The notes beneath the pieces are model-generated. The model had not been told where the DNA came from. It made no database searches and saw only the letters and a program-made list of their open reading frames with translations. Of a stretch of 64,000 bases of DNA, positions 46,513 to 55,964 are shown in pieces. This DNA comes from a virus. Its lineage: Duplodnaviria; Caudoviricetes. Positions within the stretch are counted from its first letter, which is position 1. Each line of letters begins with the position of its first letter. The position numbers were made by a program, and so were the translations under genes. The stretch lies in IMG/VR virus record IMGVR_UViG_3300044627_003892. One strand, given 5' to 3'.

Positions 46513-47307
46513 ATGGTTATTACAGATAGATTAAAACAAATTATTTTTAAACACCTATATAGAGAGTTAGGTGATTGTGAGATTATTCCTTATAATGGGT
46601 CTATATGGTTCATTAATAGGGATAATAAACATTGGTACTTTGAACTTGATGAGTCAGGTACTTTATGGTGGAGATACGATTTTTTTAATTCGTTTTTTCA
46701 AATATTCTCCATGAGTTCGGATGATTTTTGTCCTGTTCTATCTTCTTGGGTGGAAGAGGTCTTAAATCATAAGGTATCCACAACCCAGGATAGCCTGTGT
46801 AACGTATGTAAACTGGTGGAAGAGGTCTTAAATCATAAGGTATCCACAACCTTCATTCCACTTCCAATTACAACGGACAAGGTGGAAGATGTATTAAATC
46901 ATAAGGTATCCACAACGTGCGATGTTAAAGTTCGTGTTCCTTGGAAGGTGGAAGATGTATTAAGTCATAATGTTAAGGTGTCTACAACTACCATTCTCAA
47001 ATACCCCGAGCATTCATTGGTGGAAAAGGTCTTAAATCATAAGGTATCCACAACCGATTCACTTGATTACGTTGGAAGAATTGAGGTAGAAGAGGTATTA
47101 AATCATAGGGTATCTAGAACCTGCCAAACAAGCGTTTATTGTGATAGGACGGTGGAAGAGGTCTTAAATCATAAGGTATCCACAACGCAGAATTTGAATT
47201 ATGTCGGCCAAGGACTGGTGGAAGATGTATTAAATCATAAGGTATCTACAACGGAATCGTATTTTGGACCCTTCACAAGAGGGGTGGAAGAGGTATTAAA
47301 TCAATAA
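46513..47307 (+). CDS. Array-bearing protein A: conserved ~80-aa N-domain plus 8 units of VEEVLNHKVSTT + 10 variable aa
   Basis: Uninterrupted ORF through a repeat-spacer array; N-domain paralogous to 54010, 54632 and 55230. Confidence 0.85.
   Translation: MVITDRLKQIIFKHLYRELGDCEIIPYNGSIWFINRDNKHWYFELDESGTLWWRYDFFNSFFQIFSMSSDDFCPVLSSWVEEVLNHKVSTTQDSLCNVCKLVEEVLNHKVSTTFIPLPITTDKVEDVLNHKVSTTCDVKVRVPWKVEDVLSHNVKVSTTTILKYPEHSLVEKVLNHKVSTTDSLDYVGRIEVEEVLNHRVSRTCQTSVYCDRTVEEVLNHKVSTTQNLNYVGQGLVEDVLNHKVSTTESYFGPFTRGVEEVLNQ
46749..47303 (+). CRISPR. CRISPR-like repeat-spacer array inside a CDS (8 full repeats + 1 partial, 8 spacers of 30 nt)
   Basis: Repeats start at 46749, 46815, 46881, 46947 (6-nt insertion), 47019, 47085, 47151, 47217, 47283; all spacers unique; no cas genes nearby. 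Confidence 0.6.
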
Positions 47308-47763
47308 TTAGTTATTCTCTAAAGTACCTGTATAGAAATCTAATACCATATCAAAAATATCATCTAATACATCTTTTGGTAGTTCTTCATAAGACATATA
47401 ACTTTCATCTAAAATTTGTGAGTATTTATATCCACCATAATGAAACACTGTAACATCTTCTTTATTTATCATTTCTATTTGTGAAAGTTCACCGTCTTCA
47501 TCCTTGAGGACTATTGGGTTTTCATTCATATCCATTAGTACAATATATTCATCATCGGTTGTTTCTACTACTTCCTTAATAATCTTAATCTTATTGTTTG
47601 TTGTAAGGAACTCATCACCTAACACATTTATAAGGTATTCTATACCACCGAACATTTCTCCTGTCTTTAGTAACCCCGCCTGACTTGCGATAGTTAATAA
47701 CTTCATCTGTTTTACGGTGTATTCTTCCCTTAATATTCTTTTTATGTTTTGTTGTAGGTTCAT
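47308..47763 (-). CDS. Hypothetical protein with MNLQQNIKRILREE leader
   Basis: 151 aa. Confidence 0.7.
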   Translation of the reverse strand: MNLQQNIKRILREEYTVKQMKLLTIASQAGLLKTGEMFGGIEYLINVLGDEFLTTNNKIKIIKEVVETTDDEYIVLMDMNENPIVLKDEDGELSQIEMINKEDVTVFHYGGYKYSQILDESYMSYEELPKDVLDDIFDMVLDFYTGTLENN

Positions 47764-47795
47764 AATATTATAAATATAATTATATTTATTATCAT

Positions 47796-48125
47796 ATGAA
47801 ATATCTTATAACAGAATCACAATTAGATAAAGTAATCTTTAGATATTTGGATATTAAGAACTTTATTCAGATTAAAAGAGGAAACACAATATACTTTGTT
47901 AATTCGGAAGATGATAAATATGCCCAAATCAGATATGATAGAAACGATGGTTGGTGTTATATACGCCATGGATTAATTTACGAAATTTCTTCTTTCTTTT
48001 CTTTGGACATATATGATTCTAAGGAAGTTATCGGTAGATGGGTTGAAAATACTCTACAAATGAGGGTTACTTATACCCGTTTGGTCTTTCACGATGTGAA
48101 CAATTTGTTTAAAATACCTAACTAA
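47796..48125 (+). CDS. Short paralogue of the array-bearing family, MKYLITESQL leader
   Basis: FFSL...WVENTLQMRVTYT + variable + FKIPN. Confidence 0.75.
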   Translation: MKYLITESQLDKVIFRYLDIKNFIQIKRGNTIYFVNSEDDKYAQIRYDRNDGWCYIRHGLIYEISSFFSLDIYDSKEVIGRWVENTLQMRVTYTRLVFHDVNNLFKIPN

Positions 48126-54004: not shown

Positions 54005-54009
54005 TGCTT

Positions 54010-54648
54010 ATGGTTACAGATAAGCTAAAACAACTCATATTCAAACACCTATACAAAGAGTTAGGTAATGTGGAGATAATCCCGTATAAAGACTCTGTAT
54101 GGTTCATTGATAGGGAAAATTGTTATTGGTATTTTCAGTTGTCTAAAGATGGATGTTTATTTTGGAGATACTCATTCTTCCCATCGTTTTTCAGTATTTT
54201 CTCTTTGGAGCAAAGTGAGTTTGAACCAATAATATCTTCTTGGGTGGAAGAGGTATTAAATCATAAGGTATCCACGACAGGTAATAAGCTCGGTTACTTC
54301 TCGCGAAAGGTGGAAGAGGTATTAAATCATAAGGTATCCACAACAAAAATGTTTGTAATTGACGAATTTCCTCTGGTGGAAGAGGTATTAAATCATAAGG
54401 TATCCACAACTGAAGAGAAAACTACTGTAACAGCAAAGTGGGTGGAAGAGGTCTTAAATCATAAGGTATCCGAAACTTTTGAAGTAGACGCCGCCCAAAA
54501 AAGAAAGGTAAAAAAAGTATTAGATAGTAGGGTATCAACAACTAAAAATAATTCCTTATTTTCCGAAAGGTCAGTGGAAGAAGTATTAAATAGTGCTTGG
54601 GTGAAAAAGGCATTAAACAATAAAAAAGAAAATGAAAGTAACGGATAG
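54010..54648 (+). CDS. Array-bearing protein B (5 units)
   Basis: Same N-domain; VEEVLNHKVSTT repeats. Confidence 0.85.
   Translation: MVTDKLKQLIFKHLYKELGNVEIIPYKDSVWFIDRENCYWYFQLSKDGCLFWRYSFFPSFFSIFSLEQSEFEPIISSWVEEVLNHKVSTTGNKLGYFSRKVEEVLNHKVSTTKMFVIDEFPLVEEVLNHKVSTTEEKTTVTAKWVEEVLNHKVSETFEVDAAQKRKVKKVLDSRVSTTKNNSLFSERSVEEVLNSAWVKKALNNKKENESNG
54243..54591 (+). CRISPR. CRISPR-like array in CDS (5 full repeats + 1 partial, 5 spacers of 30 nt)
   Basis: Repeats at 54243, 54309, 54375, 54441, 54507, 54573; degeneracy increases toward the 3' end. Confidence 0.6.
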
Positions 54649-55243
54649 ATTAAGACAACTCATATTCAAACAACTATACAAAGAATTAGGTAATGTGGAA
54701 ATTATCCCTACCCAATACAGTTATTGGTTTATTAATAGAGAAGAAAAATACTGGTATTTCCAACTAACTGAAAGTGGATGTTTATATTGGAGATATGATT
54801 ATTTCAAATCTTTCTTTTCTTTTTTCTCTTTGGAGTCCAAAGATTTTGAACCAATTATTTCATCTTGGGTGGAAGAGGTATTGAATAGTAAAGTATCCAC
54901 AACAATTGTGCAGATGCATCATAAGAAGGATTCGGTGGAAGAGGTATTGAATAGTAAGGTATCCACAACTCAGCAATTCAGTTTCACTTCGAATGATATG
55001 ATGGAAGAGGTATTGAATAGTAAGGTATCCACAACTGCAGGAAAGGCAGGAACTGTAACCATTGCGGTGGAACAGGTATTGAATCGTAAGGTATCCAAAA
55101 CAGTCCGTGACGTAGGTGAAGGAAACTTTTTGGTGGAAGATATATTGAATCGTAAGGTATCCAAAACGGAAGAATTCATCTCAAGAAGAGCGGAATCGGT
55201 ATATGAGGCATTAAACAACAAAAAAGAAAATGAAAGTAACTGA
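54632..55243 (+). CDS. Array-bearing protein C (5 units)
   Basis: VEEVLN(S/R)KVS(T/K)T repeats. Confidence 0.85.
   Translation: MKVTDRLRQLIFKQLYKELGNVEIIPTQYSYWFINREEKYWYFQLTESGCLYWRYDYFKSFFSFFSLESKDFEPIISSWVEEVLNSKVSTTIVQMHHKKDSVEEVLNSKVSTTQQFSFTSNDMMEEVLNSKVSTTAGKAGTVTIAVEQVLNRKVSKTVRDVGEGNFLVEDILNRKVSKTEEFISRRAESVYEALNNKKENESN
54868..55215 (+). CRISPR. CRISPR-like array in CDS (5 full repeats + 1 partial, 5 spacers of 30 nt)
   Basis: Repeats at 54868, 54934, 55000, 55066, 55132, 55198; gene-specific variant GGTGGAAGAGGTATTGAATAGTAAGGTATCCACAAC. Confidence 0.6.
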
Positions 55244-55964
55244 TAGATTAAAACAGGTTGTATTCAAACAACTATACAAAGAATTAGGTAATGTGGAGAT
55301 AATCCCATATAAAGATTCTATATGGTTAATTGACCGAGAAAAGGAGCATTGGTATTTTGAATTTGAAAAGAGTGGTCGTTTGTGGTGGAGATATTATTTC
55401 TTTAATAGTTTTTTTACTATTTTCTCATTGGAACCCAAAGATTTTGAACCAATACTCTCTTCTTGGGTGGAAGAGGTATTAAATCATAAGGTGCCCACAA
55501 CTGAATTGTGTGCGGAGAAAAAGTATGATGAGGTGGAAGAGGTATTAAATCATAAGGTATCTACAACTGTTTACATGGGCATGAAGGCAAGTGTGAAGAT
55601 GGAAGAGGTATTAAATCATAAGGTATCCACAACGCAAAACGATATCGGTAAAGAAGGTTTCTTGGTGGAAGATGTATTAAATCATAAGGTATCTACAACA
55701 CAAACGACGAATGCGGAACAAGTGGTTTTGGTGGAAAAGGCATTAAATCATAAGGTGTCTACAATATCATTCAATACACCGCCGTTTCCGAATATGGTGG
55801 AGAAGGTATTAAATCATAAGGTGTCTAAAACCTATTGTAGACCCACTATTGTTCCCAGTGAGGTGAAAGAAGTCCTAAATCATAAGGTAACTACAACACA
55901 CACATCACGTACATGTAATTCACCAGTGGTGGAAGAGGTATTAAATGAAAACCCCACTGAGTAG
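55230..55964 (+). CDS. Array-bearing protein D (7 units)
   Basis: Same N-domain; VEEVLNHKVSTT repeats. Confidence 0.85.
   Translation: MKVTDRLKQVVFKQLYKELGNVEIIPYKDSIWLIDREKEHWYFEFEKSGRLWWRYYFFNSFFTIFSLEPKDFEPILSSWVEEVLNHKVPTTELCAEKKYDEVEEVLNHKVSTTVYMGMKASVKMEEVLNHKVSTTQNDIGKEGFLVEDVLNHKVSTTQTTNAEQVVLVEKALNHKVSTISFNTPPFPNMVEKVLNHKVSKTYCRPTIVPSEVKEVLNHKVTTTHTSRTCNSPVVEEVLNENPTE
55466..55946 (+). CRISPR. CRISPR-like array in CDS (7 full repeats + 1 partial, 7 spacers of 30 nt)
   Basis: Repeats at 55466, 55532, 55598, 55664, 55730, 55796, 55862, 55928. Confidence 0.6.

Follow-up and report, generated by a model that had tools for sequence, protein, structure and literature searches.

Four open reading frames (ORFs) in a 64,000-nt stretch of viral DNA (Caudoviricetes; IMG/VR record IMGVR_UViG_3300044627_003892; hereafter the window) each join an N-terminal domain (N-domain) to a tail of alternating constant and variable segments that has the geometry of a CRISPR array and is translated in frame. 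On balance, and with modest confidence, we interpret these tails as in-frame, translated CRISPR-type arrays, in which cassettes are accreted by a CRISPR-type integrase. A DNA-level integration target appears to be the best explanation of the comparative data for the 36-nt block that is repeated in them. No description of in-frame, selected CRISPR-type arrays was found in the searchable literature.

The four ORFs, all on the plus strand, share a plan in which an N-domain of ~78 amino acids (aa) is followed by 22-aa units, each with 12 constant (VEEVLNHKVSTT) and 10 variable residues. At the DNA level, the unit is a 36-nt block with the consensus GGTGGAAGAGGTATTAAATCATAAGGTATCCACAAC followed by 30 variable nt (66 nt, or 22 codons). 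Gene A (46513..47307, 264 aa) has its N-domain at 46513-46748 and its array at 46749-47303, with repeats starting at 46749, 46815, 46881, 46947, 47019, 47085, 47151 and 47217; the stop codon comes after a terminal half repeat at 47283. Gene B (54010..54648, 212 aa; N-domain 54010-54242) carries repeats at 54243, 54309, 54375, 54441 and 54507, the last with nine mismatches, and degenerate halves at 54573 and 54600; its stop codon overlaps the start of gene C (54632..55243, 203 aa; N-domain 54632-54867), for which the repeats are at 54868, 54934, 55000, 55066 and 55132 and a degenerate half copy is at 55198. Gene D (55230..55964, 244 aa; N-domain 55230-55465) has repeats at 55466, 55532, 55598, 55664, 55730, 55796 and 55862 and a terminal half at 55928. 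The resulting 30 copies comprise 24 full 36-nt repeats, one 42-nt variant and five terminal or degenerate halves. The 42-nt variant (46947-46988, gene A) contains an in-frame 6-nt insertion (VEDVLSHNVKVSTT) and is conserved, together with its downstream spacer, in every gene A-type array that contains it. In an AlphaFold2 model of the gene B protein, residues 1-85 form an alpha/beta domain (helix, four strands, two helices; predicted local distance difference test score, pLDDT, 72-90), the last helix of the N-domain continues into the first repeat, and the array tail is predicted to be disordered (pLDDT 25-45).

The arrays were compared with three sets of relatives, 7 plus 17 IMG/VR loci, 100 metagenome loci and 1005 protein homologues, and were extracted from raw contig DNA. 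The commonest lengths among the 1005 homologues differ by steps of 22 aa, and at least two canonical units were present in 71 of the best 150 of 315 family representatives. The nearest relative is G001, an IMG/VR virus contig of 240,759 bp (CheckV completeness 82%) that is collinear with the window at a DNA identity of ~86-96% (92-96% in the array flanks).

The 36-nt block begins on the wobble base of the last variable codon, and its final base is position 2 of a Thr codon. A first-pass annotation, made from the window sequence alone, had counted G as the first base of the block in 28 of 29 copies; our recount gave 29 of 30 (the sole exception being TCA at 54573), although in the other genes of the window just 11.7% of codons have G as their third base. 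The codons that this base completes are TGG, AAG, TTG, CTG, GAG, TCG, ATG, ACG, GGG, GCG and GTG, of which CTG makes up 1% of Leu codons. Information content, computed for the window copies and for 139 distinct units from related loci, rises from 0.10 and 0.23 bits, respectively, at position -1 to 2.00 and 1.78 bits at position 1, is 1.75 and 1.74 bits at position 36 and drops to 0.02 and 0.04 bits at position 37. This last position, the Thr wobble, takes all four bases, as had been noticed previously (A7 C5 G5 T7 in the window), while the in-block Thr wobble at position 34 is A in 137 of the 139 distinct units. These jumps at positions 1 and 36 bear out the first-pass description of a sharp 36-nt element out of codon register. 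The accompanying statement that synonymous choices inside the block are nearly fixed holds for several sites, which are nearly fixed on codons that the genome seldom uses (of Val codons, 9% are GTG; of Glu codons, 19% are GAG; of Lys codons, 19% are AAG; of Ser codons, 4% are TCC), but not for sites 10, 13, 16, 28 and 31, which vary. In a tally over the information-content table, codon position 3 was more variable within the repeats than positions 1 and 2.

Paralogous N-domains are synonymously saturated (proportion of synonymous differences, pS, 0.6-0.9 in most pairs), and the repeat consensus differs between paralogues at only 0-4 of ~7.5 synonymous sites. Gene-specific repeat variants, such as G16/A20/G21 of gene C, which is kept in all related phages, persist across phages, which means that homogenisation between the arrays is not taking place. 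The first-pass annotation had proposed asking whether the conservation of the repeats merely reflects recent duplication or gene conversion that also covers the spacers; it does not, since the spacers are mutually unrelated. For the remainder of the repeat, conservation is at the DNA level.

The arrays are nonetheless coding sequence. None of 246 distinct spacer clusters has an in-frame stop codon, versus 74-122 clusters with a stop in each of the other five frames, and a random 30-mer of this phage has a 52% chance of passing such a stop filter. For the N-domains, the proportion of non-synonymous differences (pN) is 0.05-0.32 versus a pS of 0.31-0.91, which shows purifying selection. Inside shared spacers we counted 55 synonymous and 43 non-synonymous substitutions (20, 23 and 55 at codon positions 1, 2 and 3, corresponding roughly to a ratio of non-synonymous to synonymous rates, dN/dS, of 0.35), where 30.2 +/- 4.1 synonymous changes are expected if the same base changes, with the same mutation spectrum, are placed at random in the same spacers; the counts were taken on minimum spanning trees of related sequences rather than on a full phylogeny, and the events are not fully independent. 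The excess of synonymous changes indicates that purifying selection acts on the peptide of a retained spacer, and hence that the peptides matter, not only the RNA; if the spacers served purely as guide RNAs, no such selection would be predicted. The first-pass claim that constraint acts "not at protein level" was therefore too strong, given that the arrays are translated and selected as protein, with no in-frame stops, gaps that are all multiples of 3, mostly synonymous spacer changes, repeats that vary most at codon position 3 and a V..VLN motif that is kept in decayed arrays. In metatranscriptome libraries, where DNA carry-over is possible, contigs run from the gene B N-domain across the first repeat and a spacer into the following repeat, and a further contig, of 148 nt, is contained within the gene C array; most of the remaining 10 kb had no such contig cover.

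Comparison between phages revealed that the arrays change by whole units and mainly at one end. Across 151 related arrays, 722 of 744 inter-repeat gaps are 30 nt long; the others are 36, 39, 96 or 102 nt, and all 744 are multiples of 3. The 307 distinct 30-mers are either at least 23/30 identical in pairs, as copies of the same spacer, or as dissimilar as a codon-shuffled control, with no pair at 20-22. Between G001 and the window, the N-domains are identical or nearly so, the N-proximal units are wholly different and the distal units are common, and gene A orthologues with an identical N-domain likewise have different N-proximal units. Between phages that are ~92-96% identical in the flanks, arrays differ by whole 66-nt units (a 36-nt repeat copy plus 30 unrelated nt) concentrated at the N-domain junction. 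The share of singleton spacers falls from 58% in unit 1 to 21% in unit 5 (115 distinct arrays; Mann-Whitney P = 2e-10) and, when scored at the DNA level, from 46% in unit 1 to 22-31% in units 3-7. The order of shared spacers is kept in 377 pairs and broken in 10, mismatches to the array consensus increase toward the 3' end, new units carry the variant of their own array's first repeat, and where internal units are missing the repeat left behind is a hybrid, as inter-repeat recombination would produce. Logan contigs from DNA runs end at the first repeat.

From these comparisons, the arrays appear to behave as a CRISPR array that grows at its leader, with the N-domain coding sequence in the place of the leader. 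They have near-identical direct repeats, unique spacers of nearly constant length and a polarised gain of units (seen by comparison, not in a time series), as canonical CRISPR arrays do. They depart from the canonical definition, which calls for a non-coding transcript giving CRISPR RNAs (crRNAs), in lying within ORFs under purifying selection. The suggestion in the first-pass annotation that the block is an integration target is supported by the differences in whole units, concentrated at the N-domain junction, and by the array-specific variants in the newest units; integration itself is inferred from these comparisons.

We also scanned for two copies of the repeat's last 12 nt at 66-nt spacing. 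Of the seven loci found, three are arrays of Flavobacterium columnare, F. covae and Flavobacterium sp. J27, with 36-nt repeats that are identical to the phage repeat at 23-25/36 positions and throughout the last 12-14 nt; over the first 22 nt, which lay outside the search query, 12/22 positions agree (shuffle P = 0.006). In F. columnare, the repeat is that published as CRISPR-2 of strain ATCC 49512 (PMC5395568), and ORFs adjoining the bacterial arrays match models of Cas13b, the type VI-B effector (E = 1e-101 for J27 and 2e-47 for a shorter piece in F. covae). The phage and Flavobacterium VI-B arrays have in common the 36-nt repeat, 30-nt spacers and the orientation with respect to the variable end; in both, growth is polar, the distal repeats are degenerate and units are lost by inter-repeat recombination. 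In contrast to the bacterial arrays, the phage array is inside a protein gene and translated under selection, its leader is coding sequence and its spacers are strictly 30 nt long (29 nt x7, 30 nt x29 and 31 nt x3 in Flavobacterium). In F. columnare, the VI-B array gains spacers through the II-C Cas1 acting in trans, despite different leaders and repeats (PMC8092290). Hairpins between leader and first repeat have been described for Cas13 arrays (PMC13187072), and a hairpin is predicted between the 3' end of the gene A "leader" and the first repeat (46709..46784, plus strand, -24.4 kcal/mol, z -3.3); it is weaker in gene B (54203-54278, z -1.2) and gene D (55426-55501, z -1.4) and missing from gene C (z 0). 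A palindrome is present at 55457-55475 in gene D. The idea, raised in the first-pass annotation, that the 36-nt element might be an RNA motif fared less well: the phage repeat does fold, but only into a 5-bp terminal stem (z -1.3), the array matches no Rfam CRISPR-repeat or other RNA family, and no compensatory changes were seen among the copies read.

A separate feature of the bacterial VI-B arrays is a ~51-nt segment that repeatedly splits the repeat after its first 18-20 nt (in J27, L049, reverse-complement ~1700-3270, and in L050, ~5340-5490), yielding hybrid repeats (AGTTCATGAATCT...); the same is seen at the head of the J27 array. These segments may represent copies of the junction between leader and first repeat that lie inside the array, or else a small element that has been inserted.

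The composition of the cassettes, like the lack of intermediate identities between them, supports an independent origin for each. In amino-acid composition they are far from the phage proteome and close to what DNA with the cassettes' own base composition (42% GC) would give if translated at random. Young cassettes, those seen once and in units 1-2, have almost no codon periodicity; widely shared, older cassettes are codon-periodic and rich in G at the first codon position. No cassette position has a conserved residue, except where the NNG codon forces one. One cassette, CDV[KE]VRVPWK (46917-46946 in the window), occurs in 27 of the 115 distinct arrays, in several array families and at varying positions; its end, ..VPW+K, resembles the ..SSW end of the N-domain, and it could be an internal leader-like anchor or a functionally important cassette.

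We propose the following sequence of events. The proteins form a phage-specific family with a folded N-domain whose last helix runs into a 36-nt element that is similar to the VI-B repeat, chiefly at its 3' end. An integrase of the Cas1-Cas2 kind would insert 30 unrelated nt at the junction of the N-domain and the first repeat and duplicate the 36-nt repeat, adding 22 codons per event; it would most likely be supplied in trans by an adaptation module of a Bacteroidota host, an unrecognised phage enzyme being less likely. Insertions would survive only if they were exactly 30 nt long and free of stop codons, as translation has to reach the end of the gene. Older units would be lost through inter-repeat recombination or decay in place, and the product would be a constant domain with a disordered tail, in which 12-aa linkers (VEEVLNHKVSTT) alternate with quasi-random 10-aa cassettes. 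Retained cassettes would then come under purifying selection. As to the benefit, our guess is that a rapidly varying tail could serve in conflict with the host or with other phages. A more specific version, which we put forward only tentatively, is that a family of freshwater jumbo phages hijacks spacer integration to diversify a protein. Host Cas1-Cas2, working in trans at a repeat-like site within a phage gene, would append random 10-residue cassettes to the disordered tail, the useful ones being retained under purifying selection and the others lost.

Several results weigh against this proposal. Cas1 was not found in six related phage records (37-82% complete), Cas2 was not found in G001 and Cas13b was not found in five related phage records, and PADLOC gave no defence-system match for eight large phage ORFs; with no cas genes found, the integrase is hypothetical. 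The exact phage repeat is absent from 185,579 species-representative bacterial genomes, it lacks the inner hairpin of the VI-B repeat, and the coding "leader" is dissimilar to Flavobacterium leaders. The first spacer base is unbiased, whereas most Flavobacterium VI-B spacers inspected begin with T. At 41%, spacer GC is too high for either the phage (32%) or the Flavobacterium loci (31%). We therefore rejected the sampling of cassettes from phage DNA or host-like DNA of 31% GC followed by a stop filter, which would give 32-33% GC. No protospacer was found for the 307 spacers in ~1 Mb of related phage DNA, nor in GenBank phages, in IMG/VR (three spacers), in JGI metagenomes (one spacer) or in 401 sampled Bacteroidota genomes plus four genomes holding related arrays with the same repeat 3' end; the weak matches were AT-rich low-complexity stretches, N-domain sequence or matches running into the repeat. 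For most natural spacers, too, no match is found. Conversely, spacers of the Flavobacterium VI-B arrays had no match to the phage.

Among other explanations, the one that survives best is that these are working guide-RNA arrays, which would provide crRNAs for a Cas13b of the host or for an unrecognised phage effector, for example against competing phages, with translation secondary and perhaps protecting or expressing the RNA. The 36/30 geometry and the orientation are those of VI-B arrays, the 3' end of the repeat is identical to that in Flavobacterium, turnover is polar, gene A has the predicted leader hairpin described for Cas13 arrays (PMC13187072), and 0/307 spacers match the genome family to which the phage belongs, which would make sense if targeting itself did the phage harm. 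A guide RNA, however, has no reason to accumulate mostly synonymous changes at third codon positions, nor to be wholly free of stops and of 29- and 31-nt spacers. Moreover, the VI-B inner stem is lost, with weak folding and no Rfam match, no effector gene was found in the phage records searched, and no target was found. The contigs from RNA libraries are unprocessed across repeats, though such contigs are uninformative on processing either way. We regard a guide-RNA function as unlikely, and note that it could coexist with cassette accretion.

A second explanation concerns the product: the proteins could be precursors of multiple peptides, in which the 12-aa linkers would serve for recognition or cleavage and the 10-aa cassettes would be the variable "cores", and this would be compatible with cassette insertion in the DNA. 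The leader-like N-domain followed by repeated constant and variable units, the purifying selection on retained cassettes and the disordered tail all fit such precursors. Cyanobactin precursor genes are likewise near-identical in DNA outside their hypervariable cassettes. However, neither the scanned flanking genes, many of which belong to no family, nor a related phage of 294 kb showed a recognisable protease, cyclase or other maturation family (Pfam, PHROG), and the cassettes are near-random in composition, with a conserved residue only where an NNG codon imposes it. We consider peptide precursors improbable.

Less probable still, and in our view very doubtful, is an ordinary coding tandem repeat, evolving by slippage, unequal crossing-over and gene conversion, in which 10 residues are diversified by selection or hypermutation and no DNA is inserted. 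It would account for the 22-aa period, for the recombinational loss of repeats with its hybrid products, for a concerted look and for the related protein motif in paralogues that have no array. It does not account for variable segments that are unrelated and lack intermediate similarity classes, for a boundary of variation that lies inside codons on both sides, or for young segments that have a random-like composition without codon periodicity; shared segments evolve slowly and mostly synonymously, the opposite of hypermutation, and no reverse transcriptase, hence no diversity-generating retroelement, was found in five related records. Lastly, a non-coding CRISPR array that is open in one frame by chance, an annotation artefact of the kind known from spurious "spaced repeat" proteins in databases (PMC7673337) and made conceivable by a 66-nt period that is a multiple of 3 and by pipelines that routinely drop translated CRISPRs (PMC10392669), is refuted by the reading-frame data (an in-frame stop in 0/246 spacers, versus a 48% chance for each), which cannot stem from assembly or gene-calling filters because the arrays came from raw contig DNA, as well as by the start codon and folded N-domain under purifying selection that are fused to every array and by the excess of synonymous spacer changes.

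Other systems resemble the phage arrays in part. Off-target integration can found new arrays, termed "neo-CRISPR" (Nivala, Shipman and Church 2018, as cited in 10.1101/148544). As that account is cited, an array arises outside the CRISPR locus and the local sequence becomes the repeat; the phage repeat corresponds, at the protein level only (14-17/36 nt), to the C-terminal segment of the array-less paralogues. The cited passages differ in describing E. coli that over-expresses Cas1-Cas2, with arrays that are not viral and not in frame in a gene, and they report no selection on a product. Two origins fit the phage arrays: the end of a phage gene that resembled a VI-B repeat may have become an integration site, or array genes may have collapsed into short paralogues.

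Host-like CRISPR repeats in viruses without cas genes are reportedly known as mini-CRISPR arrays, solitary repeat units and RNA anti-CRISPRs. Such elements are non-coding and usually have one or two spacers, which, where known, match rival viruses; the phage genes differ in having 4-8 units each, with four genes per genome, all translated. Diversity-generating retroelements and the cassettes of multi-core precursors resemble the phage arrays in that local protein hypervariation occurs in a gene that is near-invariant elsewhere, including at synonymous sites. Unlike these, the phage arrays change by the addition of whole, unrelated 30-nt cassettes at one end and not by base substitution, and no maturation enzymes of multi-core peptides were recognised. 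A diversity-generating retroelement was rejected, as no reverse transcriptase (RVT_1) was found in five related records, there is no template repeat, and the cassettes are wholly unrelated.

Were such a hijacking of spacer integration confirmed, the outcome would be a "peptide library", adaptive and heritable, that CRISPR machinery writes into protein rather than into guide RNAs. CRISPR adaptation has so far been known only as guide-RNA storage, and phage protein hypervariation is known mainly from retroelements and recombination, to which translated CRISPR-like growth would add a third way. Moreover, a virus would here be making use of the immune-memory machinery of its host, or bear the marks of it. 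The family offers hundreds of natural variants, time series from lakes are available, and the N-domain/repeat junction is a compact candidate integration substrate. Published pipelines discard translated CRISPRs as artefacts (PMC7673337; PMC10392669) and would remove systems of this kind.

Array-less paralogues of the N-domain lie between genes A and B. One of 109 aa (47796..48125, plus strand) ends in WVENTLQMRVTYT, which resembles W+VEEVLNHKVSTT as protein only (17/36 nt at the DNA level); others are at 49961-50314, 51297-51626 and 53635-53973, and the array-less paralogues carry the related 12-aa segment at the corresponding place, with 14-17/36 nt matching the repeat. That these short paralogues carry the repeat at the nucleotide level, followed by a half repeat, was not supported, given this low identity and the absence of the downstream half repeat. 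Genes B, C and D overlap in tandem by 17 nt (54632-54648) and 14 nt (55230-55243), and the codons that end one gene (..KKENESN(G), stop) also begin the next one in another frame. This suggests that entire gene-plus-array units were duplicated in tandem; translational coupling is possible.

The paralogues belong to a hyperplastic region of small genes (47796-53973 on the plus strand; 47308-47763, 50610-50939 and 52434-53234 on the minus strand) in which only the N-terminal peptide is conserved. At least nine plus-strand ORFs begin MKY(L/I)ITE(S/N)Q..., with which the N-terminus of the array proteins, M.(I/V)TD(R/K)LKQ, aligns, and three minus-strand ORFs begin MNL(Q/K)(Q/E)(N/S)IK(R/K)(I/V)LREE. 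These N-terminal peptides recall the capsid-targeting N-termini of T4 internal proteins. For the N-domain and the neighbouring genes, no informative family or fold came from Pfam, PHROGs or PADLOC, from the ESM Atlas or from a wide search of PDB folds. In more distant relatives, the arrays have decayed into ordinary protein in which the V..VLN motif persists every ~22 residues. One distant relative of 493 aa (L016, 2995-4476) has at least 12 units with the variant VEEVLNHEVETT, ~35 extra residues between N-domain and first repeat, and a C-terminal ~130 aa of decayed units.

Given the size of G001, its gene content (including ribonucleotide reductase, a SprB-repeat protein and a DNA polymerase of family B) and its collinearity with the window, we read the window as part of a jumbo phage genome, whose host is probably from the Bacteroidota. 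The window sequence is present in many lake-water metagenomes. The window is AT-rich (GC 30.6%), and many of its ORFs have no known family; those that could be assigned include a ClpB-like ATPase, a glutamine-synthetase-like protein and a single ORF that joins polyphosphate kinase 2 (PPK2) to a C-terminal cell-wall hydrolase domain (25535-27196, minus strand). It also carries a gene for tRNA-Arg(TCT) at 9259-9333 and a phage-borne transfer-messenger RNA (tmRNA) gene at 6379-6761 (Rfam, 126 bits) with the tag peptide AKLSTLGLIRTEEVTVA.

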